From an uncultured Verrucomicrobia subdivision 3 bacterium (GTDB taxonomy: Bacteria > Verrucomicrobiota > Verrucomicrobiia > Limisphaerales > UBA11358): a DNA stretch of 64,000 nt. The notes below the pieces were generated by a model, which was not told the DNA's origin, did no database searches, and worked only from the letters and a program-made list of their open reading frames with translations. Of this stretch, positions 7,560 through 52,721 are shown piece after piece (positions within the stretch are counted from its first letter, which is position 1; each line of letters begins with the position of its first letter). Position numbers and translations under genes: made by a program. The stretch is from contig CAISYZ010000257.1 in NCBI GenBank assembly GCA_903889895.1, positions 6,196 through 70,195 of the forward strand. Direction: 5' to 3'.

Positions 7560-7780
7560 CCCCAATTGTCGGACCATTTTCCCCAATTACGAAGCACCGC
7601 CCCCAATTTACCAACGGTCGTCCCCATTTTTTGGATGGCTCCCCCCAATTCCCCGAAGGCTCCCCCCATTTGCCGGGGCACCGCCCCCAATTTTTTAGCC
7701 TCTCCCCCCAATTTTCGGAGGGTTCCCCCCAATTTCCCGACGACCTCCCCCAATTTTTTTACCGCCACTCCGGTTTTTAA
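7560..7780. repeat. Degenerate 21-bp-period tandem array 1, core CCCC(C)AATT plus ~12 variable nt, ~10 units
   Basis: First A after the C-run at 7564, 7585, 7605, 7626, 7647, 7668, 7689, 7710, 7731, 7752. Confidence 0.9.
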
Positions 7781-7836
7781 CAGCCTGTTTACCAGCCAGT
7801 TGCGTATGATTTGTCGGTTTTTAACCCCCTTGAACC

Positions 7837-8697
7837 ATGCGAATCGCGTATTTCGATTCCGGCGATCCGGAAATGCACTTCGACAATCCGAACTTAATTT
7901 GGTCCGACCCATCGTATCTGCGTGAGCCGGGCGATCCCGGTTACATACCACCCTCTCCACCACCGACCCCAACCACTAAACATAAAATGAAAACTCCGCA
8001 CTGCCCCGTCCCTGTCATCATCCACAACGGCAACCTCATCGTCGCCGCCGCGAACAAATATCCCAAGGTCGCTGCCCGGATGCCCGCCAACTATCTCGCC
8101 GAGACGACCACAGCCCTCGGCAAACTGCCCACCGACATCACCGGCCAGAAAATTGCCCAAGGCGAGACCGGCAACCTCACTGCCGCGCAACAAGCCAACC
8201 TCGATTCGCTGCTGCATTGCATGAGCCAGGCCCGCAAGACTGCCAAACTCGCCTTTCCCGGCCAGACCGTGAAGTTGCATCAGGAATTTCAAATCGGCAC
8301 CCACGATTCACACGAGCTGAATGCCGTGTTGAGCCGCGCCGACATCATTCTGGCCTCCGTGCAAACCACGGCGAACCTACCCGCGCTGAAACTCAAAGGC
8401 TGGACCGATGCCGAAACGCAAACCTTCACCACCGTGCGCGGCACGTTTCCCGCCAGCACCACCACGCAGCAATCCGGCCAGAGCGACGCCAAAAAGGCGA
8501 CCGCCACGAAAGCCGCCGATGCCGCCGATGCCTACGAACATCTGTTGACCATCCAAAACGCCGCCGACTTGGAATTTCCCGCCACGAACGCGGCCAACGC
8601 CCCGATCCGCGCCGAATTCCGGCTGGGCATATTCCCGCCCGATCACCACACCCCGCCCGAACCGCCAACGCCGGCGCCCGTGACTGCGAAGCCGTGA
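7837..8697 (+). CDS. Hypothetical protein: 50-aa leader plus two helical repeats; array-1-associated
   Basis: Plausible codon usage, Pro-rich linker and tail, internal Met at 7987; no recognised family. Confidence 0.8.
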   Translation: MRIAYFDSGDPEMHFDNPNLIWSDPSYLREPGDPGYIPPSPPPTPTTKHKMKTPHCPVPVIIHNGNLIVAAANKYPKVAARMPANYLAETTTALGKLPTDITGQKIAQGETGNLTAAQQANLDSLLHCMSQARKTAKLAFPGQTVKLHQEFQIGTHDSHELNAVLSRADIILASVQTTANLPALKLKGWTDAETQTFTTVRGTFPASTTTQQSGQSDAKKATATKAADAADAYEHLLTIQNAADLEFPATNAANAPIRAEFRLGIFPPDHHTPPEPPTPAPVTAKP

Positions 8698-8920
8698 GGT
8701 TTATTCCAAGATAGTCAGTTGAGTATTTGTGCGGCGTGAAGGCCGCGCCGCGACTGCTTTCGTGATAATAGCCCAGCCATTGCTGGCTGGGAAAATATGC
8801 CATCGAACTTCCAAGTCCTGTCATGGATGGTAGACAATTTTCTTTCGTCCCTAATTGGACTGGGGTGCTGCTACGTGAGAGAGCTGGACAGAAATCACCA
8901 GGGGGAATATGGTTGGAAGC

Positions 8921-9577
8921 ATGAAACGAATGGGGCACCAAGTCCGTGTTTTGTTTTTTTTCCTATTTGGGCTGGTTCCGGTGGGTTGGGCGCAAATAGC
9001 TGAGATTTCCCCGTTTCATATTCTGCCCGAGGACGTGGTTCCCGACAGCGTCCGTCTGGTTCGTTTTAACACCAATTTTTTTGCCGTCCGGTGGACTTAT
9101 ACGGAAGCCGGCGCGCAAAAGTTTCTGGCGTTCAATGAAGCCCACGCCGGGCAGCGGGCGTGCACGGTGGTGGGGGATTATGAGACGCGGCCGTTCGAGG
9201 TCCGGTTCACGCCCATGCCCGAGTTCACCAACTATGCCGCCTGGAAGGCGGGCTGGCTCCGGCATCCGACCGACAAATTTTTCGGGCTGAACGAAACCGA
9301 AGTCACGGCTATCGCCGCCGCTCTGAGGTATGGCGATCCAAAATTCAGGTGTCTTTCAATCACCAATCCAGCCGCCGCGCCCATCAAGGGAATCCTGACG
9401 GATCCTAATTTTCGGATGGTGATTCACGCGCTGGAGCAAAGAAGCGGTTATGAAAATTTGGCGGAGCCGGAAGTAACCACGAGTTCCGGGCGGGGGCAAA
9501 ATTCCATCCGCATCCAAAATCTGGACTGGAATGTTATCGCCCCTATTACCAACCCGCCGCCCGCATTGGCTAAATAG
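8921..9577 (+). CDS. Exported hypothetical protein (SecDF-head-like N-part, secretin-like C-terminal fragment)
   Basis: Signal peptide; 'TEAGAQKF..F...HAGQ'; 'GILTDPNFRMVIHALEQRSG...AEPEVTTSSGR'. Confidence 0.6.
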   Translation: MKRMGHQVRVLFFFLFGLVPVGWAQIAEISPFHILPEDVVPDSVRLVRFNTNFFAVRWTYTEAGAQKFLAFNEAHAGQRACTVVGDYETRPFEVRFTPMPEFTNYAAWKAGWLRHPTDKFFGLNETEVTAIAAALRYGDPKFRCLSITNPAAAPIKGILTDPNFRMVIHALEQRSGYENLAEPEVTTSSGRGQNSIRIQNLDWNVIAPITNPPPALAK

Positions 9578-9596
9578 CTTGCCGCCGCAGGCGTGC

Positions 9597-9634
9597 TTCA
9601 CTGTTCCGTCACCCAATCGTCACACGGTTGTCAC
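9597..9634 (+). promoter_or_regulatory. Pho-box-like direct repeats upstream of phoB
   Basis: TTCAC/GTCAC/GTCAC/GTCAC at 9597, 9608, 9619, 9630 (11-bp spacing). Confidence 0.75.
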
Positions 9635-9679
9635 CGGATTGAAATTGTGTGACGAATTGCGGCGTGTCACACTGGCAGC

Positions 9680-10360
9680 GTGAAACCGCGAATTTTAGTT
9701 GTGGATGACGAGCCGGAAGCGGTGGAACTCGTCGAGTTTAATTTGAAGCAGGCCGGTTATGCCGTCACCACGGCGGCGGACGGCGCGGAGGCGCTCAAAA
9801 AGGCGCGCGGCCAGGTGCCCGACCTGATCATTCTGGACGTGATGTTGCCGGAGATGGACGGCTTTGAGATCTGCAAGACGCTGCGCCTCGACGCGGCCAC
9901 GGCCAAGGTGCCCATCATCATGCTCACGGCCAAAGCGGCGGAGATTGACCGCGTGCTCGGCCTGGAACTCGGCGCGGACGATTATCTGACCAAGCCGTTC
10001 AGCCCGCGCGAGCTGCTCTTGCGCGTGAAAAAAATCCTCGCCCGTTTCCAGACCGAGGAAAAGCCGAAGGAACAACTGCGCTTCGGCGATTTGCTGATTG
10101 ATTTGCCGCGCCACATCGTGAGCTGGAAGAACAAGCCCATCGAGATGACGGCGACGGAGTTCAAGCTCATCACCGTCCTGGCGCAGCGCGCGGGCCGCGT
10201 GCAGTCGCGCGACCAGCTTTTGCGCGATGTGTGGGAATACGACAGCCTGATTGACACCCGCACGGTGGACACGCACATGCGACGTCTGCGCGAAAAAATC
10301 GGCCCGGCCTCCAAGCATCTGGACACGGTGCGCGGCGTGGGCTACCGGTTTGTGGAATGA
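9680..10360 (+). CDS. phoB: OmpR/PhoB-family response regulator
   Basis: Receiver plus winged helix, 'TRTVDTHMRRLREK', 'TVRGVGY'; next to PhoR-like kinase and Pho box. Confidence 0.85.
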   Translation: MKPRILVVDDEPEAVELVEFNLKQAGYAVTTAADGAEALKKARGQVPDLIILDVMLPEMDGFEICKTLRLDAATAKVPIIMLTAKAAEIDRVLGLELGADDYLTKPFSPRELLLRVKKILARFQTEEKPKEQLRFGDLLIDLPRHIVSWKNKPIEMTATEFKLITVLAQRAGRVQSRDQLLRDVWEYDSLIDTRTVDTHMRRLREKIGPASKHLDTVRGVGYRFVE

Positions 10361-10433
10361 AGAAGTTGGTTTTGCCACGTTCCGCTGCTTGCGGTTAGTT
10401 TCTGCATTCTGCATTCTTACTTCTGCCTTTGCC

Positions 10434-11606
10434 ATGTGGCTTTTTCTTTTCATTCTCGCGCTCGCGGCGCTGGCCGGACTCCATTTCCGATGGCGGGCCA
10501 AGTTTCAGGCGCAGCGCGAGCAGCGCGCGGCGGAGATGGAGGCTTTTCAACGCAAGCAGCAGCAGACCTCGCTGGACGCGCAGGCGCAGCAAAAAGTTTT
10601 GTTCGATTCCATGCTCGAAGGCCTGCTGCTCCTCGACCGCAGCCGGAAGATTTACCTCGCCAATCGCACATTCAAAAGCCTGTTCGGCGTCAAGACCGAG
10701 CTGCGCGGCAAAACCGTCGTCGAGGCGCTGCGGTTGCACGAACTGGACGGCCTGCTCCAGCGCGCCGAAACCGAGAAGCAGGTGCTCGACTACGAAATCA
10801 AATTGCCGGGACTCGCCGAGCGTTGGTTGCAGGTGAACGCCGCCGCCATCACGAACGCCGCCGGCGAGCGCGACGGAACGATTCTGGTTTTCCACGATTT
10901 GACGCGGCTAAAACAGCTTGAGCGGCAGCGCGAAGAATTCGTCGCCAACGTCAGTCACGAGTTGCGCACGCCGCTTTCGCTCATCAAAGGCTACGTTGAA
11001 ACGTTGCTGGACGGAGCCAAAGACAATCCCGAAGTGGCCGAGCGTTTTCTGAAAATCATTGAGCGCAACGCGAACCGGCTGGATTTGCTCATCCAGGATT
11101 TGTTGACGATTTCCGCGCTGGAATCCGGGCGGATGAAACTGGAATTGTCGCCGGTGGATTTGCACGCGCTGACGGACAAAGTCCTGACGTTCCTGCACAC
11201 CAAGGCGGAAAACAAAAACGTCACGCTGATCAACGAACTGCCGGCACTCACGATGAATGCCGACGCGAACCGGCTTGACCAGGTGCTTGCGAACCTCGTG
11301 GACAACGCCATCAAATATGGCCGTGCGGAAGGCCTGGTCATCGTTGGTGGAAAAAAACTGGCCGATGGTGCGCTGGAAATTTTTGTGCGTGATGACGGGC
11401 CGGGCATTCCGGCGGAAGCGTTGGAGCGCGTGTTTGAAAGGTTTTATCGCGTGGACAAGGCGCGTTCGCGTGATCAGGGCGGCACCGGTTTGGGACTGGC
11501 GATTGTGAAACACATCGTCCACGCCCACGGTGGCGAGGTGCGCGTGGAAAGCGAACCGGGCAAGGGCGCGACGTTTTTCTTCACACTGCCGCAGCCATCT
11601 ATTTAG
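10434..11606 (+). CDS. phoR: PhoR-like sensor histidine kinase (TM, PAS, HisKA, HATPase)
   Basis: 'EFVANVSHELRTPL', 'FERFYRVDKARSRDQGGTGLGLAIVKH'. Confidence 0.85.
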   Translation: MWLFLFILALAALAGLHFRWRAKFQAQREQRAAEMEAFQRKQQQTSLDAQAQQKVLFDSMLEGLLLLDRSRKIYLANRTFKSLFGVKTELRGKTVVEALRLHELDGLLQRAETEKQVLDYEIKLPGLAERWLQVNAAAITNAAGERDGTILVFHDLTRLKQLERQREEFVANVSHELRTPLSLIKGYVETLLDGAKDNPEVAERFLKIIERNANRLDLLIQDLLTISALESGRMKLELSPVDLHALTDKVLTFLHTKAENKNVTLINELPALTMNADANRLDQVLANLVDNAIKYGRAEGLVIVGGKKLADGALEIFVRDDGPGIPAEALERVFERFYRVDKARSRDQGGTGLGLAIVKHIVHAHGGEVRVESEPGKGATFFFTLPQPSI

Positions 11607-11904
11607 CAGCAGATTTTTTCTTGGCGGGAGCACGCTTGCGTGCCATTGCCTTTTTGATTTGTGCCGTGCGTTGCGGGTCGGGCGAATCCAACCCATCCAG
11701 CAAGCGGTTGGGGCTGGTTTCAAGAAATTGCGCCAACCGTGCAAAGGTGGTGAGCGCAATGGGATAACTTCCGCGCTCAATATGCCCGATGGTTTTCCAA
11801 TGCACCCCCACCAATTCAGCGAGACACTCCTGCGTCAAGTTGGCTTTCAACCGGGCTTCGCGGAAGTTTCGCCCAATCAATCGGAGCATTTGCTGGTTCT
11901 TCAC
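11599..11904 (-). CDS. XRE-family HTH transcriptional regulator
   Basis: 'LTQECLAELVGVHWKTIGHIERG' HTH. Confidence 0.8.
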   Translation of the reverse strand: MKNQQMLRLIGRNFREARLKANLTQECLAELVGVHWKTIGHIERGSYPIALTTFARLAQFLETSPNRLLDGLDSPDPQRTAQIKKAMARKRAPAKKKSAAK

Positions 11905-11975
11905 TCGGCATAATGGAATAGATATGCTCCTTTATTGACACTCCGCATACATTCCGTTAATTAAATGATGTCCGT

Positions 11976-12182
11976 ATGAAAATTAGCGAAGCAAAGGCCT
12001 TGGAAATGCGGCGGGGGAACCAACCGTGCAATTACCCATTTCTCGAAATGGAGCGTGATGAAATAGGAACTTCAACCGGCGATTATGTCTGCACGCGATG
12101 CGGTAAAGCTGGCTGGGACGGCGACTGGAACAAACTGCGTGAAAACAAGAAGAACCCAGAACAGAGGCAACGGAACTCCTAA
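11976..12182 (+). CDS. Small hypothetical zinc-ribbon-like protein
   Basis: 'PCNYP...TGDYVCTRCG'; ATG start behind a TTGACA element at ~11935. Confidence 0.6.
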   Translation: MKISEAKALEMRRGNQPCNYPFLEMERDEIGTSTGDYVCTRCGKAGWDGDWNKLRENKKNPEQRQRNS

Positions 12183-12209
12183 CCTTTGAAAAACCAACAT
12201 ATTCGCATT

Positions 12210-12683
12210 ATGAAAACAAAACACATCATCGCCTTGAAAGGCCCGGTCAATGTTGGCAAAAGCACAACAATCAGGAAAGTCTTTGCGCTTTTGAAGGAAG
12301 CCTACCCGACTGCACATATTCTGATATTCAACCCAAAGGGAATTGAAATCACTGTGACCATCGAAGTTGACATCACTGTGATCATAGAGATTAACGGGAC
12401 ATCCGTCGGCATGGAGAGTTGTGGCGACGCGCCGCCATATCACAACAGGCTTATTGAGAGCATTGAGCGGTTCAAGAAAGCCAAGTGTAGCATTATCCTC
12501 TGCGCCACGAGAACTAGCGGCATTTCAGTCACCACTGTCGAAAACTTTCAACGCGAACAGCCAGAATTCAGGCTTGTTTGGTATCACAATAAAGCGGAAC
12601 CCCAAGTCAACTTGCGTGAACAGCGCGATGACGCGATGGCACAGACTATCTTCAAGCAAATCCAGAATGCACTAAACACCTAA
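12210..12683 (+). CDS. Small P-loop NTPase-like hypothetical protein
   Basis: Walker A 'IIALKGPVNVGKSTT'. Confidence 0.7.
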   Translation: MKTKHIIALKGPVNVGKSTTIRKVFALLKEAYPTAHILIFNPKGIEITVTIEVDITVIIEINGTSVGMESCGDAPPYHNRLIESIERFKKAKCSIILCATRTSGISVTTVENFQREQPEFRLVWYHNKAEPQVNLREQRDDAMAQTIFKQIQNALNT

Positions 12684-12686
12684 CCT

Positions 12687-14165: not shown

Positions 14166-14284
14166 AAAAAGCTTAAGTCTTTAGGCCGATTCCTGCCAAG
14201 GTTCCGGCCTTTTTCATTTTCATTCGAGAAAATCAGCGGTTGAAAGTTCTTTTTCACCGCAGTAATTTTTTCTATCCTCCGCGT

Positions 14285-14761
14285 ATGGTTCACGTTGGCA
14301 TCGGCTATGACGTTCATCAATTGGTCGCCGGGCGCAAGCTCGTCCTCGGCGGCGTGGAGATTCCGCATACCAAAGGCCTCGACGGCCATTCGGATGCCGA
14401 CGCGCTGATGCACGCCATCTGCGACGCCGTCCTCGGCGCGCTGGGCGAGGAGGACATCGGCCACTTTTTCCTGAACACCGACCCGCGCTGGAAAGGCGTG
14501 CCGAGCAGTATTTTTCTGGAGGAGGCCGCGCGCCAGGTGCTCCGCCGCAACGGACGCATCGTCAACATTGACGCCACGGTCATCGCGCAAGCACCAAAAA
14601 TTTATCCGCACATTGCGGAGATGAAAAAACGCATCGCCGCCGCGCTGGGCATTTCCGAAGCGAAAGTCGGCGTGAAGGCGACGACGAATGAACTGATGGG
14701 TTTCATCGGTCGCGAAGAAGGCATCGCCGCGATGGCGGTGGCGAGTGTGGATCGTCCCTAA
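14285..14761 (+). CDS. ispF: 2-C-methyl-D-erythritol 2,4-cyclodiphosphate synthase
   Basis: GIGYDVH, GHSDAD, KATTNE. Confidence 0.96.
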   Translation: MVHVGIGYDVHQLVAGRKLVLGGVEIPHTKGLDGHSDADALMHAICDAVLGALGEEDIGHFFLNTDPRWKGVPSSIFLEEAARQVLRRNGRIVNIDATVIAQAPKIYPHIAEMKKRIAAALGISEAKVGVKATTNELMGFIGREEGIAAMAVASVDRP

Positions 14762-14763
14762 CC

Positions 14764-16617: not shown

Positions 16618-16640
16618 AATCATTGCTGCAATAAAAAATC

Positions 16641-16910: not shown

Positions 16911-16965
16911 CGGTTCCCCTGAATTGGCGATGGCGGATTTATCGGCAAACGGGTTTAATCGACGC

Positions 16966-18057: not shown

Positions 18058-18128
18058 TTTTTCCGCAGGCCATTTTGTTTCGCGCGATTTTCCGCTGACA
18101 AATCTTCGCGATGCGCTACCTTCCGCGC

Positions 18129-18899: not shown

Positions 18900-18901
18900 T
18901 C

Positions 18902-23194: not shown

Positions 23195-25524
23195 TTTTGC
23201 TTCCATCGCAGCAGCCGCAGTGCGTTGCCAATGACGATCAAATCCGAAATGCCCATCGCCGCCGCGCAGAAAATCGGGCTGATGACGCCGCACGCCGCCA
23301 GCGGCACGCCGAGCGCGTTGTAAAAAAAAGCCCAGAACAAATTTTGCTTGATGGTGCGCAAAGTCGCGCGCGCCAGACCGAGCGCCTCCGGCACGGCTTC
23401 AATTTCTGATTTCAGCAGGATAATATCCGCCGCCTCGCGCGCCACGTCGCTCGCACGGCTCACTGCGATGCCGAGGTCAGCCTGCGTCAGCGACGGCGCG
23501 TCGTTGATGCCGTCGCCCACGAACGCCACGCGCTCGCCGCGCGACGGGGGCGTCGCGCCCACATTCTGCGACGGGGCGTCACAGCCACGCGCTTGAAGTT
23601 TTTTCACAAACTCCGCCTTTTGTTCCGGTCGCACTTCGGTAAACACATTTTCCGCCGCGATGCCGACTTGCTTGGCGATGCTGGCCGCCGTGAGTGAGTT
23701 GTCGCCGGTGATCAAATAGATTTTCAGCCCGTGCTGCTGGAGCTGTTTCACGACCTTCGCCGAATGCGTTTTCACCGTGTCGCGCACGGCGAAGAGGCTG
23801 AGCAATTCCTTTTCCGCCGATAGGCCGACAATTGTCGTGCCCTGCGCCGTCCATTCGGCGATAAATTTTTCGCCCGCCGCCAAATCCACGCCGCCTTCGC
23901 GTAGCCAGCTGAGCGAACCGAGGCGAATTTCCGATTTCCGATTTCCGATTGCCGATTTGGCTTCCACGCCGCAGCCGCAAATTTCCCTCCAGTCGGTAAA
24001 TTCAACTTTGTCCGAAGAAATTTTTGCAATCGCCTGACTGATTGGATGCGTGGAATTTCTGGCGAGCGCCGCCGCCAGTTTTTCCAATTGGCAATTGGCA
24101 ATTGGCAATTGGCAATCTAGCTGTGCGGCCACTTCCGGTTTGCCCAGCGTCAGCGTGCCGGTCTTGTCAAAAACCACCGCCGTGATTTTGCCGGCTTTTT
24201 CTAAGGCCACACCATCGCGGATCAAGATGCCGCGTTTCGCAGCGGTGTTCGCGCTCGCCATGATGGCGGCGGGTGTGGCCAAACCCATCGCGCAGGGACA
24301 CGCGACAATCAAAACACTGGCGGCGATGACAAATGCCTTGTCCGCGCCGGAATGGACAAACCAAAAGATGCCCGCTGCCAGCGCGATGGCGACGATAATC
24401 GGCACGAAGACGTTGCTGATGCGGTCGCCGAGGCGCTGGATGTCGGCGCGACTGGTCTGCGCGCGTTGCACGGCGGCGATGATGTGTGCCAGTGCGGTGG
24501 CTTCGCCGGTGGCGGTCACGCGCATAATTAGGCGACCGTTTAGATTCACCGTGCCGGCAAACAGTTCAGTGCCGGATTTTTTATCGGCGGGAACGGATTC
24601 GCCGGTGAGCATGGCTTCGTCCACGGCTGATTCGCCCTCCAGCACCACGCCATCCACCGGCACGCGGTCACCGGGGCGGAGCGCGAGACGGTCGCCTATT
24701 TTTAATTCCGCCACAGTGACATCAATTTCCACTTGCTGGTTCGGTGCCTGTCCGGAAGGACTTGCCGATTGCCGATTGCTGATTGCCGATTTGGGAAATG
24801 ACAATTTGCGAAGGTCAAACGGCTGGCCGGTCTGATTTGAAATTTGATATTCGGGATTTGAAATTCTTCGGGCCGTCTGCGGCGCGAGCTGCAACAAGGA
24901 TTTTAGCGCGCTGCTCGCTTTGTCGCTGACGCGCGCTTCAATCCAGTGGCCGGCGCTGATGAGCGAAATGATGGCGGCGGCTTCCATGAAATAGAGGTGT
25001 CCGCAACTGCTGCTGAACAAAACCCAGCAACTGAAGCCGAACGCCGTCGTGGAGCCGAGCGCGACGAGCGCGTCCATGTTGGACTGACCGACTTTGATTT
25101 GCCGCCACGCGCCGCGATAAAACTGCGCGCCGCAAAAAAGTTGCACGACGGCGGCGAGCGCAAACGACAGCCAGCGGAACCAGCCGGTCATCATCAGGCC
25201 GAAACCCCATTCGCCAACCATCAGCGCGGTGGTGACGGCGAGGCCGAGGATCAGATTCCATTGCCAGCGGCTTTGCCGCGCCGGTTCGCCGGATTTTTCG
25301 GGAACAATTTCTTTTGCCGCAAAACCGGCCTTGGCAATGGCGGTGAGAATTTCCGGAACACTCTTCGCTTCGGCGGAATGCCAGCGCACACTGGCGCGTT
25401 CCGTCGCCACGCTCACGCTGACGCTGTGGACGCCGGTGATTTTCTGCGCGGCCTCGGTGACTTTGCGGGCGCAGTTGTTGCAGGTCATGCCGGTGACGCG
25501 CAGTTCGGTGGTGGGCAGAGCCAT
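23191..25524 (-). CDS. copA: Cu(I)-type P1B ATPase carrying several in-frame repeat insertions
   Basis: HMA GMTCNNC, TGES, CPC, DKTGTLT, GDGIND, YN motif. Confidence 0.9.
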   Translation of the reverse strand: MALPTTELRVTGMTCNNCARKVTEAAQKITGVHSVSVSVATERASVRWHSAEAKSVPEILTAIAKAGFAAKEIVPEKSGEPARQSRWQWNLILGLAVTTALMVGEWGFGLMMTGWFRWLSFALAAVVQLFCGAQFYRGAWRQIKVGQSNMDALVALGSTTAFGFSCWVLFSSSCGHLYFMEAAAIISLISAGHWIEARVSDKASSALKSLLQLAPQTARRISNPEYQISNQTGQPFDLRKLSFPKSAISNRQSASPSGQAPNQQVEIDVTVAELKIGDRLALRPGDRVPVDGVVLEGESAVDEAMLTGESVPADKKSGTELFAGTVNLNGRLIMRVTATGEATALAHIIAAVQRAQTSRADIQRLGDRISNVFVPIIVAIALAAGIFWFVHSGADKAFVIAASVLIVACPCAMGLATPAAIMASANTAAKRGILIRDGVALEKAGKITAVVFDKTGTLTLGKPEVAAQLDCQLPIANCQLEKLAAALARNSTHPISQAIAKISSDKVEFTDWREICGCGVEAKSAIGNRKSEIRLGSLSWLREGGVDLAAGEKFIAEWTAQGTTIVGLSAEKELLSLFAVRDTVKTHSAKVVKQLQQHGLKIYLITGDNSLTAASIAKQVGIAAENVFTEVRPEQKAEFVKKLQARGCDAPSQNVGATPPSRGERVAFVGDGINDAPSLTQADLGIAVSRASDVAREAADIILLKSEIEAVPEALGLARATLRTIKQNLFWAFFYNALGVPLAACGVISPIFCAAAMGISDLIVIGNALRLLRWKQK
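23540..23588. repeat. REP-like palindrome doublet in frame within copA
   Basis: CGCGACGGGGGCGTCGCGCCCAC and TGCGACGGGGCGTCACAGCCAC; extra peptide before RVAFVGDG. Confidence 0.7.
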
Positions 25525-25597
25525 TCGTTCGGCTTCAGGATGCCACCCGCCGGCCAGTTCCGCAATCTAACGGAAGCTTTGGCAGCCTCCTGATTTG

Positions 25598-25671
25598 CGG
25601 AGCGCGGCATTCATGCCGCTTCAATGTCGCTTGAAATGCTACCGTTGAAACGGGCTAAAGCCCGCGCTCCG
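25598..25671. repeat. REP-like inverted-repeat element
   Basis: CGGAGCGCGG-CATTCATGCCGC ... CGGGCTAAAGCCCGCGCTCCG: terminal inverted repeat with two inner hairpins. Confidence 0.75.
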
Positions 25672-25694
25672 AAGCAATTTAGGATGCTTCCGAG

Positions 25695-26005
25695 CCTTTG
25701 CCAAAACCTTTGGAACGGCTGGGAAACCTTTGGGAACGCTTTCCAAACCTTTCGGAAGGCTTCCAAAACCTTTGGTAACGTCTAAAAGGTTTTGGAAATG
25801 TTTCCAAAAAGTTTTGGAAGACTTTCGGCGGAAAACAAGATGCGCCATTAACATTAAAGTTTTTTCCAAAGGTTTTTGAAGGCTTTCCAAAACCTTTTTT
25901 AGAGACAAAAGAAGGTTTAGAAATGTTTCCGAAACCTTTGGTAACGGCTAAAAAGGTTTTAGAAATGTTTCCAAAAGGTTTTGGAGACTCGCCAAAGGTT
26001 TTGAC
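25695..26005. repeat. Degenerate 21-bp-period tandem array 2, quasi-palindromic unit TTCCAAAA(CC/GG)TTT(T)GGAA, ~13 units with a gap near 25825-25860
   Basis: Consecutive units tttccgaaacctttggtaacg / gctaaaaaggttttagaaatg / tttccaaaaggttttggagac / tcgccaaaggttttgacaaag. Confidence 0.88.
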
Positions 26006-26325
26006 AAAGCCCCCCGATTCTGGTCAAAACCGCTCGAAAATGGGTGAAAACCGCATTTTTTGCCTCGCCCGGCGACTTTGCGGCCGCGGCCAAGGCATTG
26101 GCGGCTTGGTTTTAACCGGCATTAACCTCGCCAATTTTACTCCCTATCCGCAGCGGTTGGGGAGCAAGCCGGCTGGTCGCGCCTAAATCGGATGAAGGCG
26201 GAGGTGAGGTGCCACTCAACTGTTTCTTGCAACTATCAATTTTCCCGCGCAAACTCGCCGCTGTCCGAAATAAAAACAACGACCAAATATATTAACTAAA
26301 CAATTTGCGTAGCTACGGCTACGGG

Positions 26326-26441
26326 CTGCTCCGAAAACCGAGAATTTTCCAAGCCCGTTACACGAACCGACCGAGCGCGCCCAAATGGGCGCGGCTTGGC
26401 GTGTTCTCGTGTAACAGGCGCTTCTCGGTGCCTCGGAGCAG
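26326..26441. other. Long imperfect hairpin (candidate ncRNA or MITE) upstream of methylase
   Basis: Nested pairs CTGCTCCGA/TCGGAGCAG, ACCGAGAA/TTCTCGGT, GTTACACGA/TCGTGTAAC, CGCGCCCA/TGGGCGCG. Confidence 0.7.
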
Positions 26442-26505
26442 GGACGCGGCGAGTCCGCGCCTCTTCTTTTTAGAATTCCCGTTTCCGCCCGCTCGCAGCG
26501 GAAAC

Positions 26506-27702
26506 ATGGCACACGACAATCTCAAAAACGCAAAACGGGCAAGGAACGACGAGTTCTACACTCAATACGCCGATATTCAGAAGGAGATTGAAGCGTATCT
26601 GGAATACGATGCCGATGTGTTCCGGGGCAAGGTGGTTTATTGCAATTGCGACGATCCGTTTGAGAGCAATTTCTTCCGCTACTTCATTCTCAATTTCAAA
26701 AAGCTCGGTTTGAAGCAGCTCATTACCACCAGCTACAAACCTTCGCCCGTGGCAAATACGCAACTGGAATTGTATGGCGATGACAACACGCTCCCAAAAG
26801 CAAAAGGTCGTCCGAAGTTAACGGCCAATAAATTTATCATCAATGAAGTGCATGACATTGACGGGGGCAGCGAATTCAACTTGAAATCCGTGGCCAGAAA
26901 GTTAAAGGCCAACAAAAACAACGAGTGGACTCCGCTGGAAGGCGACGGCGATTTTCGCAGTGCCGAGTGCATCGAACTGCTGAAACAATCCGACATTGTG
27001 GTGACCAACCCACCGTTCTCTTTGTTTAAGGAGTATGTTGCCCAGCTCGTGGAATACGGGAAAAAATTCCTAATCATCGGCAACACCAATTCAATTACCT
27101 ACTTGGAGATTTTCCCACTTATTAGGAACAACAAAATTTGGCTGGGTTGCACAAATTTCAATGTCGGAATGTTTTTCAAGGTGCCCGACGACTGGGAGCG
27201 CTTTCACCACATTGACGATGAGACGGGCTGGAAAATAGCGCGAGTTTCAACGTCGTGTTGGTATACAAACCTCGACCACGGTCGCCGCCATGAGCCTTTA
27301 AACCTCATGACTATGGCAGAGAACCTTAAATATAGTAAAAACCTGAAAGGAAAGTCAGCGTATGACCGCTACTTCAACTACGATGCGATTGACGTCGGCA
27401 CCTATAAGGAAATTCCCAGCGACTACGATGGCGTAATGGGCGTCCCAGTAACCTTCCTCGACAAATATAACCCTGACCAATTTGAGATAGTCGGAAACAG
27501 TGACGACGGCAGTATGATGCGCGAGCTTGGAGTCCGAGCCCTTGGTCATAAATTCATTAGCGCATATCGCGCTCGCGGAGGCACTGGCCACTATAGTCCT
27601 GGCATGCGAATGCTTGGTCTGCTCGAACCTCAGGCACGAATCATCTTCAAGCGCCTCCTAATCCGGCATCGCACGAAGCCCACCAAACTAGAGAAAAGAT
27701 GA
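26506..27702 (+). CDS. Adenine-specific DNA methyltransferase, EcoRI family
   Basis: NDEFYT, YCNCDDP..SNF, GDGDFRS.EC, VTNPPFSLF, MGVPVTFLDKYNPDQF. Confidence 0.9.
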   Translation: MAHDNLKNAKRARNDEFYTQYADIQKEIEAYLEYDADVFRGKVVYCNCDDPFESNFFRYFILNFKKLGLKQLITTSYKPSPVANTQLELYGDDNTLPKAKGRPKLTANKFIINEVHDIDGGSEFNLKSVARKLKANKNNEWTPLEGDGDFRSAECIELLKQSDIVVTNPPFSLFKEYVAQLVEYGKKFLIIGNTNSITYLEIFPLIRNNKIWLGCTNFNVGMFFKVPDDWERFHHIDDETGWKIARVSTSCWYTNLDHGRRHEPLNLMTMAENLKYSKNLKGKSAYDRYFNYDAIDVGTYKEIPSDYDGVMGVPVTFLDKYNPDQFEIVGNSDDGSMMRELGVRALGHKFISAYRARGGTGHYSPGMRMLGLLEPQARIIFKRLLIRHRTKPTKLEKR

Positions 27703-28868
27703 AGACCACACTCCAAATCGACATCACCGTCGCCGACATCTGCGATGGCTTTGTTTACAACGAACTGGAAGGCAAGGGGCTTTTCGGTTTGTCCGGCAAA
27801 CTCACAATTCAGCCGGAATATCAGCGTAATTATATTTACGCTGCCGACGGCGGTAAAAAAGAGGCGGCGGTCATCGAATCCGTTCTCAATCGCTATCCGC
27901 TGGGGTTGATTTATTTCAATAAAGTGGCTGAAGACAAATTTGAAGTTTTGGACGGACAACAGCGCATCACCAGTCTTGGGCGTTTCATTGCCGGCAAATT
28001 TGCCATCAAAGATGAGGATGGCAATGAGCAGTATTTCAGCGGCATGGCAAAGGACAAGCGGGACAGAATTTTAGAAACCGAGCTGACGATTTACGAATGT
28101 GAGGGCAAGGAAAGTGAAATTAAAAAATGGTTTGAGACAATAAACATTGTCGGCGTCCCGCTCAATAAGCAGGAATTGCTCAACGCCATTTTTTCCGGTC
28201 CGTTTGTGACGCTCGCCAAGGCGGAGTTCAGCAACAGTCAAAATGCCAACATCCAGAAATGGAGCGCGTATGTTTCCGGCAGTGCCAACCGACAGCAATT
28301 TTTGGAATGTGCGCTGGATTGGGTGAGCAATGGCGACATCAGCGGTTACATGAGCCAGCATCGCAAAGATAAAAACATCAAAGAACTAAAAACCTATTTT
28401 AACACCGTCATTGATTGGGTGTCTGGTGTGTTTACAGAAGTTGAAAGCGAAATGTGCGGGCTGGAGTGGGGACGACTTTACGAAACATATCACCAGAAAG
28501 CATACAATCCCGCGAAGGTTTCGGCGGAAGTGCAGAAGCTATATGAGGATTCCTATGTTTCTGACAAACGTGGCATTTTTGAGTTCATCTTGGGCGGCTC
28601 AAAAGATACCAAGCTGCTGAATGTCCGGGTCTTTAATGAGGCAACGAAGAAATCCGTTCATGTCACGCAGACTAAAAAGGCCAAAGCGGAAGGGAAATCA
28701 AATTGCCCGCATTGCGCCATTGGGCATGATGCAAACAAAGCCAAAATTTGGGATCTCAAAGACATGGATGCCGACCATGTGGCTGCGTGGAGCAAAGGCG
28801 GCGGGACAAATGTTAAAAACTGCCAGATGTTGTGCAAGACGCACAACCGCGCAAAAGGCAATCGGTAA
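27699..28868 (+). CDS. DUF262 (GmrS/ParB-like) plus HNH endonuclease, putative restriction enzyme
   Basis: QPEYQRNY, DGQQRITS, C-terminal CxxC...DH...GG.T...NCQMLC..HN..K; overlaps methylase stop. Confidence 0.88.
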   Translation: MKTTLQIDITVADICDGFVYNELEGKGLFGLSGKLTIQPEYQRNYIYAADGGKKEAAVIESVLNRYPLGLIYFNKVAEDKFEVLDGQQRITSLGRFIAGKFAIKDEDGNEQYFSGMAKDKRDRILETELTIYECEGKESEIKKWFETINIVGVPLNKQELLNAIFSGPFVTLAKAEFSNSQNANIQKWSAYVSGSANRQQFLECALDWVSNGDISGYMSQHRKDKNIKELKTYFNTVIDWVSGVFTEVESEMCGLEWGRLYETYHQKAYNPAKVSAEVQKLYEDSYVSDKRGIFEFILGGSKDTKLLNVRVFNEATKKSVHVTQTKKAKAEGKSNCPHCAIGHDANKAKIWDLKDMDADHVAAWSKGGGTNVKNCQMLCKTHNRAKGNR

Positions 28869-28915
28869 CTCCTCACCCCGGACCGCTCCTCGTTTGGGCG
28901 AGGCGAGGGGGAAGA
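28869..28915. repeat. Degenerate REP-like palindrome / terminator
   Basis: CTCCTCACCCCGGACCGCTCCTCG..GGGCGAGGCGAGGGGG resembles CCCCTCACCCCGGCCCTCTCCC-type repeats. Confidence 0.4.
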
Positions 28916-28918
28916 ATT

Positions 28919-29572
28919 TCAGCGGCGGACGGTTTTCATCCGCGCGTGCCAGTCGCGGAGGTGCGGGCGCGCTTTCGGCAATTCGTAATTTTCGGAGAAC
29001 AAAAAGTTTTCCAGCATCCCGAACAGGTCGAAGTCCACAAACAGCGGGCGTTCGCCCAACAAAAATTCCGAGTGCGCGAGCATCTGTTCGTAAGGCGTAA
29101 GTGCGGCGGTGAGCTTTTGCAGCCAGAGTTTTTCGTCGCGCCGCCATTGGTCAATGCAGCCGCGACCGAACTTGCGTTCCTTGAAGCGCAGGTATTGCAA
29201 CTGCTCGGCGGGCTTCACGAAGTCGCGATACTGGCTGTCGTTCAAGCGGAACGCCGCGCCCTCGACTTCGCTTTCGATGTGCCGCCAGAGCAGCGATTGC
29301 ACGCCTTCGCGGTCGGCGGGAAACAAACCGAGCTTGAGTTTCGCATCAAGATATTTGGCGACAATCTGCTGGTCGTCGGTGTCGTCAAAAATAATTTTCG
29401 TGCCGTCGCGCAAGGTCGGCACGCCGTAGTATTTTTGCTTCGTGATTTTCCAGACGAGGTCGCGCGTTTGCGGCGGGAGGTTGGTGGTTTTGAATTTCAC
29501 GCCCGCGAATTCCAAAATGCGTCGCTGGACGATGCAGAACGGGCTCCAGGGAAATTGAATCAGTTCAATCAT
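28919..29572 (-). CDS. Glutathione S-transferase family protein
   Basis: 'WSPFC', 'VPTL.DG', 'FLLGERP...DF.LFG'. Confidence 0.8.
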   Translation of the reverse strand: MIELIQFPWSPFCIVQRRILEFAGVKFKTTNLPPQTRDLVWKITKQKYYGVPTLRDGTKIIFDDTDDQQIVAKYLDAKLKLGLFPADREGVQSLLWRHIESEVEGAAFRLNDSQYRDFVKPAEQLQYLRFKERKFGRGCIDQWRRDEKLWLQKLTAALTPYEQMLAHSEFLLGERPLFVDFDLFGMLENFLFSENYELPKARPHLRDWHARMKTVRR

Positions 29573-29653
29573 GTCCAATATTTCCGCCATCAGGCGCAGG
29601 AACTCAAGCGTAAAGCCGCTTTACTCTTTTGGGCGCGTGGCTAGAATCGCCAC

Positions 29654-30328
29654 ATGGCTGGCGAATACGATTCCACCGAATTTCTTGACACCGATTTTCT
29701 CGCGCAGAAGTCGCCTGCCGCCGCGCCTGTGTCCGGCTATGGTCGCGCGCCGTCGCCGGATGACGTGAACCGCAAGGTGGTTGAGGCGCAACAGAAACTC
29801 GTCGAGCTCAAGCGGGCGCAGGAGGAACTGGAACGCGAGCGCGCCGGGCTGGAAGAACTGCGCCGCCGGCAGAATGAATTTCAGACCGGTCGCGACGAGG
29901 TCATCCAAAATCTCACGCGCGGACTCGGCCTGCTGGAAGAGGCAGAGTTTGTCGCGCGCCGCGACGCCGAGCAGATGGTCAAAACCGTTGGTGATTTCCG
30001 CACGGCGCTGACGAAAGTGCAGGCCATCAACGATGCGGCGTGGACGAAGGAGAATTTTCAAATGGAACTCACCCGCGCGCTGACGACGATTGAAAATGCG
30101 CGGATGGAATGGAATTCTGCGCGGCTGAAAATCTCCGCGCTGGCAGGCGAGACCAAAAATGCCGCCGCGCCGCTGGACAAAAATTCTTCCGCCGTGGCCG
30201 CCGTGCCGTCGCTGGCGGAACTACCATTCGGCCAGCTTTGCAAAATCGGGCTGGCGATGACGTGGCCGTTGCTGCTCGTGGCGCTCGGCGCGTTGGGCAT
30301 CTTCATCGCGATTCTTCTGCGCAAGTGA
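29654..30328 (+). CDS. Hypothetical coiled-coil protein with C-terminal TM anchor
   Basis: Coiled-coil composition, hydrophobic tail. Confidence 0.8.
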   Translation: MAGEYDSTEFLDTDFLAQKSPAAAPVSGYGRAPSPDDVNRKVVEAQQKLVELKRAQEELERERAGLEELRRRQNEFQTGRDEVIQNLTRGLGLLEEAEFVARRDAEQMVKTVGDFRTALTKVQAINDAAWTKENFQMELTRALTTIENARMEWNSARLKISALAGETKNAAAPLDKNSSAVAAVPSLAELPFGQLCKIGLAMTWPLLLVALGALGIFIAILLRK

Positions 30329-30329
30329 C

Positions 30330-30845
30330 ATGGGCTTGCTGAACAAAAAGCCGGATCCGATCACCGACAAGGCGCGCGCGCTGGCGGCGGAAATCGCCGC
30401 ACTGGAAGCCGAGATCAAAAAACTTGATACGCAGGTCCAGCGCACGGCCACGCCAAAACTGCGTTCCACTGCGACGCCCGCCGGCGAAACCATTTCCCGC
30501 GCGTCGGAAAGACCTACGCCGGTTCCGAAGCCGAGCGAGCCGGTTTTTGAAGAAGTGAAGGCGGCCAAAATTGCGTCGAACATAACGGAAGTGCCGGAGT
30601 TATTTAACGAACTCGGTGTGCGCAAATATGATTTGCCGGCGCTGTTCAACCGGTTGCGCAACCATCTGCGCGGGCCGACGACGAGCAATCCGCGCTTGGT
30701 GAATTATCTCGCGGCCGGCGGCGTGCAGGGCTTGCGGCCGCTGCGCTACGAAAAGCGCGTGGCGCGTAACCGCTTCATCTGGCTGGTGGTGGTCGTGACG
30801 TTTGTGCTGTTTGGATTATTTTACTGGCTGCTGCCCAAACATTGA
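30330..30845 (+). CDS. Hypothetical protein with C-terminal TM anchor
   Basis: Tight operon spacing, N-terminal coiled coil, C-terminal TM helix. Confidence 0.75.
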   Translation: MGLLNKKPDPITDKARALAAEIAALEAEIKKLDTQVQRTATPKLRSTATPAGETISRASERPTPVPKPSEPVFEEVKAAKIASNITEVPELFNELGVRKYDLPALFNRLRNHLRGPTTSNPRLVNYLAAGGVQGLRPLRYEKRVARNRFIWLVVVVTFVLFGLFYWLLPKH

Positions 30846-30850
30846 AAATT

Positions 30851-31345
30851 ATGGAGTTGCTCATCGAATTGCCGGTTGCGACCGCCGACGGGATATTTCT
30901 GGCCCACTATTCTGACCAAGGATTGGCCGAACTTGACTGGCCGGCGGCCAAAAATGCGCGGGTCAGTTCGGGAAATCGAAAAACGTCGGTGCAAATTCTT
31001 CGTTGGCACAAGCTCACGACGGAGTCTTTGAAAAAAGCTTTGGCTGGCCATGAGGCGAAGGAATTGCCGCCGCTGGATTGGTCGGGCAAAACGGAATTTC
31101 AAATATCCGTCTGGCGCGCGATGCTGAAAATTCCGACGGGCAAAACGAAAAGCTACGGCGAAATTGCGGCGGCTATTGGCCGGCCAATGGCTGTGCGCGC
31201 CGTGGGCGGCGCGTGCGGGGCGAATCCGATTCCGGTGCTAGTGCCTTGCCACCGGATTCTGGCCGCGAACAAAAAGATTGGCGGCTTTTCCGGCGGGCTG
31301 CAGCGGAAGCGCGATTTGCTCGCGCGCGAGGGCATCAAAATTTAG
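30851..31345 (+). CDS. ogt: Methylated-DNA--protein-cysteine S-methyltransferase
   Basis: SYGEIA, RAVG.ACG.NP, PCHR. Confidence 0.92.
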   Translation: MELLIELPVATADGIFLAHYSDQGLAELDWPAAKNARVSSGNRKTSVQILRWHKLTTESLKKALAGHEAKELPPLDWSGKTEFQISVWRAMLKIPTGKTKSYGEIAAAIGRPMAVRAVGGACGANPIPVLVPCHRILAANKKIGGFSGGLQRKRDLLAREGIKI

Positions 31346-31446
31346 CTGCAGATTCCAAAAGATTAAGGCCGCAAGAACGCACAAAAAGCGCAAAATGATT
31401 ATTCATTCTGCGCCTTTGCGATTTGGATGGCAAAAATTTCCTGCGT

Positions 31447-32172
31447 TCAATTCAGCGCCGCTTTGCAGGCGGCTTCGATTTCGGCCTTGGCTTCGGCGGC
31501 TTCCTTTTCAAATTCGTCGCTCTTCTTGAATTGCTTCACGATGGCCTGGGCGAGGACGCGACCGGCGTAAATGTCGGTCGGATAATGCCGGGCAATCTGC
31601 ACGCGGTGCCAGCCCATCTGCCGGGCGTGGGCGATGATGGCGTCGTGCTGGGCGGGCAGCAAATCGGCAAGGACGAGCGCGAGCACCATGGTTTCGGTGG
31701 AATGGCCGCTGGGATAGCTGAAGGATTTTTCCAATTTGCCATTGGCGAGGCTGGGGTCGGTGGTGAACGGGCGCGGACGTTGAAAATGATCCTTGCCGAG
31801 ATCCGTCACGGTTTCGGCGTCTTTCTGGACTTTTTCAAAAAAAGCCGTGGTCTTGGGCAGGTTGGTCTCCACAAAATAAGCGCCGACGGTGGTGGTGAAA
31901 TTGAAGACGGAAAATTTCTTTTCGTCGTAGGCGGCCTGTTTGTCGGCGTCGCTGGCGGCTTGATAGACGGAGCGGACCGTCGCCATGTCAGCGGCCTGCT
32001 CGGCGGAATCAGGCAACGGCGGCGGCGGGAGGAGTTCGCTGGCGTTGGGTTTGCCCTCCTTGAGGAAATTGAGCGACGACTCCTTGGCAAAGGTGGCCAA
32101 AGTGGTAGCTGTCAGTAACGTGGCAAACATCGCCACCCGCATAAAACGGGCCGATTGGGGAATAAAAATCAT
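31447..32172 (-). CDS. Exported PAP2 / class A acid phosphatase
   Basis: K-x6-RP, SYPSGH, 'R.QIARHYPTD'; start uncertain. Confidence 0.88.
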   Translation of the reverse strand: MIFIPQSARFMRVAMFATLLTATTLATFAKESSLNFLKEGKPNASELLPPPPLPDSAEQAADMATVRSVYQAASDADKQAAYDEKKFSVFNFTTTVGAYFVETNLPKTTAFFEKVQKDAETVTDLGKDHFQRPRPFTTDPSLANGKLEKSFSYPSGHSTETMVLALVLADLLPAQHDAIIAHARQMGWHRVQIARHYPTDIYAGRVLAQAIVKQFKKSDEFEKEAAEAKAEIEAACKAALN

Positions 32173-32217
32173 GATTGGTAACAAATTGCGGGTTGCGAGT
32201 GGCAAAGAACTGGTTGT

Positions 32218-33096
32218 TTACTCTCCTGAGGCTGCTGGCACCTGCGTGCCTGAGCAATCCCAATTGATGTCAGGTTGCCCGGGATCCGATCCTGCAGTAG
32301 TGGCAGGACTTTGAACTACCACGTAACTATATTTGAAGTAAGAAGCATGTCCGTCACTGAAAGTGAGGAGACCGCCCTGACTGTGCCGCGATGAGAAGCG
32401 GGTTGTATAAACCTGCGGGGTGGCAAGCTTGATTTGGTTGGCGGTGCTGCCGGCATATGGAGTTTCTGCCGAACGGTTGCGGACATCGGCAAACAGAACC
32501 AAGGCCGAAGGGTGAACAATCTTCGAGGACTTCAGGGGAACTGTGTAGCCAGCAATGGCACTTTCAGCTGCGGTAGAGTGTGAATTCATCCCGTAACTAA
32601 ACAACGGGCGCGCGCCGGGAATCATGTCATACTGGTCGGAGCCCGCCTGTTTATCCACTGGGTCAATGCCTTGTGCGAAGGCGGTCGGACAGGTAAAAAT
32701 GGACTTGGAGCCATAGAAGATTGTAGGGTCCAAAGCCCAAGTATAGAGCGGTTTGTTAGCGACGAGGGGCGGCAGGGCATTGAACCAGACATCGTCACCT
32801 TGCCCATTTTGATGATAACTCCCGATGGACAGCCAGACCGGGTTGTCCTGATCCGTGCTAGTGGCATAGCCCTTCTGAAATTTCGGGTAGGGAAACACTT
32901 GACTGTTGTCATCCACATACATGTTTTCCGCCAAACCCCATTGTTTGGAGTTGCTCAGGCAAACCGCCTGTTGCGCCTTCGCCTTGGCCTTGGCCAGGGC
33001 CGGCAGCAGCATTGAGGCAAGAATCGCGATGATGGCGATGACCACCAAAAGTTCGATTAATGTGAATCCGGCGTTTTGCTTTTGTTTCAAGTTCAT
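32218..33096 (-). CDS. Prepilin-type N-methylation domain protein with H-X9-DG motif
   Basis: [25 protein letters not shown]; '[14 protein letters not shown]'. Confidence 0.92.
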
Positions 33097-33168
33097 GGCT
33101 CTGGCGGTTGATTTTTTAAATTTGGGAAAACGAACAAATTCCCTGTCCGCACAGAATGAGTCATCCAC

Positions 33169-33206
33169 GTTACAGGTGAATGGCGTAATTGTTACGTTTG
33201 CGTGAC
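33169..33206 (-). promoter_or_regulatory. Pho-box-like repeats upstream of prepilin/phosphatase genes
   Basis: Minus strand GTCAC/GTAAC/GCCAT/GTAAC at exact 11-bp spacing. Confidence 0.65.
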
Positions 33207-33247
33207 AAGCTGCCCACTTCCCGGCTGTGGCCAACGACCAAAAGCAA

Positions 33248-33277
33248 ACCCCGCCGACCATCGCTGGAAGGCGGGGT
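33248..33277 (-). terminator. Putative terminator of the FN3-domain gene
   Basis: ACCCCGCC/GGCGGGGT stem followed by TTGCTTTT on minus strand. Confidence 0.5.
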
Positions 33278-33294
33278 GAAGGTAATTAAACCTC

Positions 33295-34062
33295 TCAGGT
33301 GCTCATGCAGTTCACCGATGGGCAGTAATCGCTGGCCAAGTTTCCGCCGCCGAGGGCGCAAGCATCCACCGTATAGACCTTGCCCGGCGTCAGGTCGGGC
33401 AAAACAATGTTCAGCGTGGACGAAAAATTCTTGGTATAGACCAACGCGCCCGCCGCGTCGCGCACGCGCAGCAGATAGCCGCGCGCATGGGCCGAACCTT
33501 GCAGCTTCACCCCGAGGCTGCCGCTGCCCTTGTTGAAGAGGTTCACGATGGCTGGCACATCCGGGGTCATCGCGGCGTGATGGGCGGGAATAATCACGTC
33601 GAAGCCCGACAACATCGCCTGCTCCGGGGTGATGCCTGGAATGGCCTCGATGTAAGCCGCGAGCTGTCGGAGCAAAGCGATCAGAATTTCCTTCTTGGCG
33701 TTTTTGTCGGCAGTGAGCGGTTTGCCAAGGTTGGACGCGGCGGCATCGGCATCATGAAACGCGCCTTGGGCGGCGTCCAGATTGGCGATGGGGAAGGGCG
33801 GGTCTTTGAAGATGGCCGCATTCTTCGTCATCTGCGTGGCCACGTTGCTGGCGAATTTGTCCAGCGGCAGATCCATCAATTGCGCGAACGCGAGGGAGAT
33901 ATGGAACAGCATAACTTTTTTATTGGTCGGCTGGGGAGCCACGGGCGCGTCGTAATAAACCTTGTCCCCCCACTTGTAAGGCTGCCCGGTCAACGGATTG
34001 ATTCCGTTCCAAACCGCGCCATATTTTACGGGGTCGCTCATGCTCTCGTTCCAGCCAGGCAT
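33295..34062 (-). CDS. Hypothetical protein: 50-aa leader, helical domain, C-terminal fibronectin type III-like domain; array-3-associated
   Basis: 'L..LTPGKVYTVDA.A.GG...SD' FN3 signature; internal Met at 33912; upstream TTGACA at 34179-34174. Confidence 0.8.
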   Translation of the reverse strand: MPGWNESMSDPVKYGAVWNGINPLTGQPYKWGDKVYYDAPVAPQPTNKKVMLFHISLAFAQLMDLPLDKFASNVATQMTKNAAIFKDPPFPIANLDAAQGAFHDADAAASNLGKPLTADKNAKKEILIALLRQLAAYIEAIPGITPEQAMLSGFDVIIPAHHAAMTPDVPAIVNLFNKGSGSLGVKLQGSAHARGYLLRVRDAAGALVYTKNFSSTLNIVLPDLTPGKVYTVDACALGGGNLASDYCPSVNCMST

Positions 34063-34230
34063 TGGATATTTGGGGAACGCCTTCTACTCTGCCAAAAAAG
34101 CGTCGGCACCACAATAATTAATTTCAATAAATGTAATATAAAACGCTATAATCTATAAGATAAGAAAATCCTATGTCAACCGCCCGGCGGCCGAGGTTGA
34201 CGTCCCCGCCACCGCCCGCGAGCGGGTGGG

Positions 34231-34482
34231 CAGCTTGATTCAGGCCAGCGGGCGCTTGGTCTTGGACGGCGTTTCCTTGGTCAAGAATGGGGCTTCCTTA
34301 CTTAAAGATGCGGCTGCGTCGGTTAAGGAAATGATTTCCTCGGTCAAGGAAGCGCCAACCTTAACTGAGGATGAGATTTCCTTAGGTAAGGAAGCGGCAA
34401 TCTTGATTAAGGAAACGATTTCTTTAAATAAGGAAGCGCCTTCGTCGGTTAAGGAAGGCGCTTCCTTAACCGACTTTTCGGA
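34231..34482. repeat. Degenerate 21-bp-period tandem array 3, unit TTCCTT-N4-AAGGAA-N5, 10 clear plus 2 decayed units
   Basis: Unit starts 34273, 34294, 34315, 34336, 34357, 34378, 34399, 34420, 34441, 34462. Confidence 0.92.

Positions 34483-51622: not shown

Positions 51623-52721
<1,099 letters not shown>

Follow-up and report, generated by a model that had tools for sequence, protein, structure and literature searches.

Arrays of 21-bp period paired with genes for helical proteins as a candidate mobile cassette in an uncultured Verrucomicrobia subdivision 3 bacterium

Tandem repeats with a constant unit size of 20-21 nt and a variable sequence have been described in Bacillus, where several families occur per genome and most are non-coding (Subirana and Messeguer 2021, PMC8161180). 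In the available part of that account the function of the repeats is unknown, and its authors propose a protein whose polymerisation calls for units of constant size. Here we analyse repeats of this kind in a 64,000-nucleotide stretch of DNA from an uncultured Verrucomicrobia subdivision 3 bacterium (assembly GCA_903889895.1, contig CAISYZ010000257.1, positions 6,196 to 70,195; hereafter the window, in whose numbering coordinates are given unless another contig is named). The window contains three arrays with a period of 21 bp, two of which each lie upstream of a small gene for a predicted helical protein; we refer to the gene as the partner gene and to the pair as a cassette. Like the Bacillus repeats, these arrays have a fixed period, belong to several unrelated sequence families in one genome and are generally non-coding. 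Unlike them, as far as the accessible text of the earlier account goes, they have a partner gene, a period specific to the protein family, and empty sites in related genomes. The repeat class is already in print, while its linkage to a gene appears undescribed: no description of array-gene pairing, or of a function for the DUF6261 or PQLLE protein families considered below, was found in the literature searched, which mostly excluded subscription texts and also supplements.

A second system with a comparable layout is ParR-parC, in which, in the available part of the source (PMC9426499), the array sequence differs between families, each array is read only by its cognate protein, and the ParR of pSK41 binds 20-bp repeats. 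The cassettes share with it a direct-repeat array upstream of a small-protein gene, and because ParR proteins read only their cognate parC arrays, the partner protein may by analogy read its own array. Unlike ParMRC, the cassettes are chromosomal, number up to about 25 paralogous copies per genome, and encode predicted three-helix bundles, some of them joined to FN3, in place of a recognised ribbon-helix-helix. The partners have no ribbon-helix-helix match in Pfam or NCBIfam, and their monomer models are helical bundles. No ParM or ParA gene lies beside the window cassettes, the neighbours scanned belonging to other families or to none. If the analogy holds, the array would be centromere-operator-like and work without a motor; with no motor gene beside the window cassettes and no plasmid, this is not a ParMRC system.

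An earlier reading made from the sequence only had placed three arrays of about 21-bp period in the window, with a conserved core and variable flanks in each unit, and both observations hold. Autocorrelation peaks at lags 21 and 42 reached z 9.8 for array 1, 9.3-9.7 for array 2 and 10.5 for array 3 relative to base shuffles, Tandem Repeats Finder returned periods of 21, 42 and 63 at the three arrays, and the cores match the description. Array 1 (7560..7770; no strand is assigned to any of the arrays) consists of ten 21-bp units in one register, with a C-run and an AATT-type core. Array 3 (34231..34482) is built of dyad-symmetric 21-bp units (dyad z 4.7), its in-register stretch extending from about 34271 to 34480. 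Each of these two lies upstream of an uncharacterised gene, as had been noticed: array 1 belongs to a gene of the family that we call A (7837..8697, + strand, 286 aa), and array 3 to a gene of family F (33295..34062, - strand), whose homologs begin at the ATG at 34041. Array 2 (25697..26005) is without a partner gene; its units are also dyad-symmetric and form two blocks in different registers, separated by a gap near 25817-25866. None of the matches listed from 150 congeners covers it.

These three arrays belong to a genome-wide population. The genome scanned comprises 4.1 Mb and is 76% complete, with the window on its contig C257; homologs carry source names from the order Limisphaerales of the Verrucomicrobiota. 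The scan found 73 regions with a strong 21-bp period; the other periods between 12 and 33 gave 0-9 each. Typical arrays have 8-20 units, and nearly every one has its own consensus. A search of the genome's reading frames yielded 26 small partner genes in three families, F, H and A. An array was present in the 1.1 kb upstream of 22 of these 26 genes, downstream of one, and in 2.7% of random windows. One of the four array-less genes is cut by a contig end, two match via the FN3 part only, and one has a weak signal.

The association extends to homologs. We found 80 family-A metagenome loci and analysed 76, four being without the gene start; among the 56 with at least 550 bp upstream, every one has an array upstream (56/56) and none downstream (0/56). 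The sequence-only reading would have been refuted by homologs without an enrichment of flanking 21-bp arrays; the enrichment is there. In genomes, 7 of 9 family-A genes have an array upstream. For family F in relatives the count is 16/24 upstream and 0/23 downstream, with 10/11 upstream in two further subfamilies and 4/4 in two distant members of the phylum; family H has one upstream in 11 of 13 cases. The families are distributed patchily among 30 relatives (F in 13, A in 5, H in 9), and the highest counts of all three occur in the same genomes.

The period follows the protein family, being 21 bp for A, F and H and 42 bp for a fourth family, D, which came to light with three more cassettes on further inspection. 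In this genome the family-D gene (C193:30573-31409), a helical gene of 276 aa, is preceded by one of two 42-bp arrays that had escaped the scan for 21-bp periods. Family-D homologs have a 42-bp array without a 21-bp signal upstream in all nine loci, and none of eight has one downstream. These results support the proposal of a functional module with a constant period and gene partner and a drifting sequence.

Two sets of loci had other arrangements: partner-like helical genes with an array on the downstream side (L342, C89:121972-122625; L343, C96:19659-20021), and arrays upstream of small genes that appear ArsR-like by eye and not helical-bundle-like (L244, C33:13944-14309; L255, C217:1189-1563).

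When 69 arrays were compared by unit, they formed 10 small groups and 46 singletons, and 8 of the 10 shared-unit groups consist of one cassette array and gene-less copies. The variable part of the unit is only about 12 nt. Dyad symmetry is present in 51 of the 69 arrays, more than half of arrays fold strongly, and folding is equal on both strands (mean z -4.0 and -4.1 in 20 cassettes). Dyad symmetry together with equal folding of the two strands fits double-stranded DNA. A universal curvature code was also considered and rejected, as no shared AA/TT signal at 10.5 bp was found across the arrays.

Between orthologous family-A arrays, the four core bases differ by 4-5% and the flanking positions by 30-60%. 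The synonymous divergence of the partner gene, at 34%, is far above that of the core, whose conservation is somewhat inflated by the choice of arrays by core motif. Homologs whose proteins are 52-83% identical carry arrays of different consensus, which indicates that array sequence turns over faster than the protein.

The sequence-only reading gave the two partner proteins in the window the same architecture. What they have in common is an aromatic/Asp-rich N-terminal leader, absent from many homologs; their sequences show no similarity (best BLASTP E 0.48) and their predicted folds differ. AlphaFold models the family-A protein as all-helical (pLDDT 75), possibly as two tandem modules, and the family-F protein as a leader, a three-helix bundle and a C-terminal FN3 (pLDDT 83), the FN3 also matching at E 3e-6. 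Neither protein belongs to a Pfam family. The same division holds for the families, F having three helices and an FN3 and A helices only, and family H, read from the alignment, combines helices with an Ig-like domain. FN3 is dispensable, since a 21-bp array also accompanies a 123-aa gene (C236:5692-6066) that is helical only. In the family-A window gene the optional leader and a Pro-rich linker (7837..7986, +) precede a second ATG at 7987. Such a leader is common to otherwise unrelated partner families (window 7837-7986, L341, L015, L019) and optional within a family, and in some family-D members it is internal to the protein.

The two halves of the family-A protein score 4-6 bits against each other and 0-0.5 when reversed, a weak duplication; none was detected in family D. 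Fold searches gave no clear match for the helical parts of either window protein. For the family-A model, Foldseek returned no match at E 0.001, the best Z of 8.5 being to generic helical bundles, and the four-helix bundles of Avd and IVS were rejected as fold relatives since their Z of 6.3-6.8 is not above background. Clusters of look-alike proteins are unnamed and come most commonly from Verrucomicrobiota, Bacteroidota and Myxococcota; we treat them as leads only. In a profile search of 1.84 billion representatives, the 150 matches listed were large multi-FN3 proteins and uninformative. DUF6261 (PF19775) and PQLLE (NCBIfam NF052641) are likewise small, all-helical families of no known function. 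NF052641 matches a family-A paralog at E 2e-8 over most of its length, and a cluster with 16% DUF6261 scores 0.83. The matches to both families are below their cut-offs. Scores of 16 and 34 bits were obtained where 80 is required, and PF19775 matches none of 34 family-A members.

Comparison with congeners suggests that the cassettes move. Cassette 1 and a gene at 8909-9577 form a lineage-specific inserted block (7328..9599, unstranded) between an nnr gene and a gene at 9695-10501. The flanks of this block are 54 bp apart in one congener (G118) and 116 bp apart in another (G064), and close copies of the gene from the block occur at other sites in G118 and G012. At the site of cassette 3, G087 has about 360 bp of other sequence. 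In all, empty sites were found in congeners for both window cassettes and for 5 of 6 gene-less arrays tested. Clustering of the neighbours of family-A loci gave 22 types upstream (29 loci) and 30 downstream (48 loci), and the loci cease to be similar at the stop codon. A small variable gene often begins within a few bases of that stop codon (L021-L100), as if the cassette lent its promoter to passengers.

About two thirds of the arrays in this genome, array 2 included, are gene-less. The sequence-only reading had named arrays at random intergenic sites, whatever their neighbour, as evidence against a system; this is partly what we see, since about two thirds adjoin unrelated genes, but these have the look of gene-less insertions, given the empty sites in relatives and the unit that several of them have in common with a cassette array. 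Array pairs sharing a unit have common flanks in 3 of 11 cases only. At the identity of the relatives, only about 85%, no shared ends or target duplications were definable, and searches of viral contigs (family A) and of plasmid and phage records (one family-F protein) gave no homolog with the queries used. One insertion lies inside a coding gene: a family-D-type 42-bp array sits in frame in a variable loop of alaS (L340, C248 about 2410-2650). It is absent from four congeners, in which the same loop holds different inserts, one of them a short palindrome. Gene boundaries and in-frame positions are also where palindromic elements of the REP-like and Rickettsia types insert. The arrays resemble them in being lineage-specific insertions found both between genes and within a coding gene, and differ in being phased tandem arrays tied to a protein gene, with no common terminal hairpin or transposase found. 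At one gene-less site two different cassette-type arrays stand back to back (L249, C196:6959-7694); 250 bp of its flank is 95% identical to a cassette on contig C96, which could be due to a recent partial copy or to misassembly. A single weak reverse-transcriptase match was seen inside a 1131-aa frame at another locus (L339, C62:4144-4593).

The position of the arrays relative to promoters varies between families. At most family-A loci the array is preceded by a promoter-like box, an invariant ATG (31/31), a stop-free frame and a hairpin in which one pair is compensatory. From this head (itself at pN/pS 0.75) an open reading frame (ORF) runs through the array in 31 of 32 loci. Its frame varies between loci; it usually ends no more than about 40 nt from the partner start and in two loci is fused to the partner. 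The head of window array 1 differs from the others and keeps the open frame (7365..7925, +, with ATGs at 7365 and 7464), a candidate upstream ORF without sign of peptide selection. By eye, similar heads precede some H and D arrays. Many family-F arrays, array 3 included, precede the promoter of the gene itself; a sigma-70-like promoter (34150..34179, -) separates array 3 from its gene and matches 10 of 12 consensus positions, a consensus match only. Across 21 cassettes, an ATG frame spans the array in sense in 10 and in antisense in 9. In one RNA library the 7837-8697 gene had three contigs and array 1 had none; such contigs show neither transcription nor its absence.

Our favoured explanation is a mobile array-plus-protein cassette in which the helical protein binds and polymerises along its own upstream array, to which we assign a probability of roughly 0.47. 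A small cassette found at many chromosomal sites would have the array as its non-coding upstream half, and the partner protein would likely coat the array with one binding unit per two DNA turns. Array and protein may drift together as cognate pairs, which would give each locus a different consensus, and the coated array could control the cassette's own promoter. Gene-less arrays would be captured fragments that serve as remote sites for the cognate protein. Movement of cassettes by host recombination at permissive gene boundaries is a guess. We infer that the protein reads its own array from the locus-specific consensus, the pitch of two or four DNA turns, the dyad cores and the obligatory upstream position; among the options put forward in the sequence-only reading, a protein-binding lattice phased at two helical turns fits best.

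Several results weigh against this explanation. The homolog loci include near-duplicates and are not independent, and some partner genes are array-less (L141; C159:8392). The partner proteins match no known DNA-binding fold or family, the mean net charge of their helical parts (-7 to +4) is not that of strongly basic proteins, and convincing homology between the partner families was not found. Family A, although weakly duplicated, keeps a 21-bp period (0.59 at lag 21 and 0.57 at lag 42, with 11 of 44 higher at 42); taken with the lack of a detected duplication in family D, this means that a simple ruler based on module count is not established. Lastly, family-A arrays lie downstream of a conserved promoter-ATG-hairpin head and are probably transcribed, to judge from their sequence context, which allows an RNA role.

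Such a role would make the array a 5′ leader, translated in any frame or bound by the partner, that tunes the downstream gene or is cut into 21-nt units. The family-A heads and the ORFs that end close to the partner start point this way, as do the comparable heads before some H and D arrays and the strong folding of over half of the arrays. We nevertheless consider it unlikely, given that array 3 and many family-F arrays are upstream of the gene's own promoter, that a spanning frame is no commoner in sense than in antisense, and that the arrays fold without strand preference and have no match in Rfam. The more specific idea of guide-like RNAs, raised in the sequence-only reading, gains no positive support; features of CRISPR- or TIGR-like guide arrays were not found, there being no Rfam repeat family and no PADLOC or Pfam effector match (effector nuclease or Nop-domain) for the partners. 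Translation could also matter in its own right if the arrays encoded heptad-repeat peptides that pair with the helical partner. A stop-free frame is present in 54 of 65 arrays of this genome (11 best-frame stops vs 27 expected), and in-frame fusions of head, array and partner occur in several homologs. Stops are, on the other hand, scarce in every frame, in line with the genome-wide depletion of TA, and frameshifts are tolerated. In each of the six frames pN/pS lies within 0.75-1.14 across 18 orthologous arrays of family A, compared with 0.35 in the partner gene; in the 65 arrays the best frame gives 0.66 vs 0.64 in a column-permuted null, and no codon-phase pattern was found. Constraint on the arrays acts on nucleotides, not on a peptide. 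With no purifying selection on any single frame, the heptad-peptide proposal is largely refuted and we consider it very improbable.

The arrays might also be selfish or recombinogenic satellites, homogenised by slippage and conversion, that aid the capture of cassettes at new sites while the protein only hitch-hikes. This would suit the two thirds of arrays that are gene-less and lineage-specific, the site with two different arrays back to back and the in-frame array in alaS. It would also suit the density of 16 arrays per Mb here vs 4 in 1.3 Mb sampled from six relatives; density does not discriminate among the relatives themselves (1 array in 729 kb from gene-less relatives vs 3 in 575 kb from gene-bearing ones). 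Neutral homogenisation leaves unexplained, however, a fixed core beside varying flanks, a family-tied period and a strict upstream position, and the scarcity of common flanks and the lack of definable ends or target duplications also speak against it; we think it improbable. It is also possible to regard the array as an enhancer of unusual size that serves a host regulator (a sigma-54 activator, for example), or as a site for a general nucleoid protein, the latter in keeping with the polymerising protein suggested in the available text of PMC8161180. As sigma-54 upstream activator sites do, the arrays of one family-F subgroup precede a -24/-12-like box, here by 100-500 bp, and by eye such a box stands between array and gene at about a dozen of 24 loci. 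Upstream activator sites of sigma-54 usually number 2-3. The arrays differ in having 10-20 sites and a different consensus at each locus, and most cassettes lack the box: the strict pattern occurs in 1 of 25 cassettes of this genome and in neither window cassette. Sites resembling those of IHF are not enriched (11/25 cassettes vs 40% of 487 control regions), and a single host reader explains neither the individual consensus of most arrays nor the lack of a common AA/TT 10.5-bp signal. The chance that a host regulator accounts for the arrays seems slight to us. Neither array transcription nor sigma-54 control is general.

The surroundings of array 2 deserve a separate description. On one side lies a heavy-metal P-type ATPase gene and on the other a type II methyltransferase followed by a GmrSD-N/HNH endonuclease (26305-28868). 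Upstream of the methyltransferase gene there is a non-coding element of about 245 bp (26238-26482), found with 78-88% identity in many congeners, sometimes in multiple copies, and without an Rfam match at the gathering score. Short 7-bp tandem runs occur inside the P-type ATPase gene (23927-24865), at 52135-52168 and elsewhere.

It is tempting to go further and speculate that the cassettes represent an undescribed DNA-coating class, in which dozens of paralogous helical-bundle proteins each read their own array with a ruler of 21 or 42 bp set by the protein. Orthogonal cognate pairs would then have spread through the chromosome, and gene-less copies would be remote sites for looping, silencing or organising DNA. 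That would put a name to the reader of an unexplained class of bacterial repeats and supply a new programmable DNA-binding fold. We hold this wider version only tentatively and consider it doubtful as a whole. In the available part of PMC8161180, constant-size repeats of 20-21 nt are a published puzzle without a known reader. The question is reduced to a binding matrix by a candidate reader, by the roughly 25 natural cognate pairs that one genome offers and by the contrast between 21 and 42 bp. If the partner does read its array, many different sequences are recognised at a fixed pitch by a small helical bundle that has no known DNA-binding fold.

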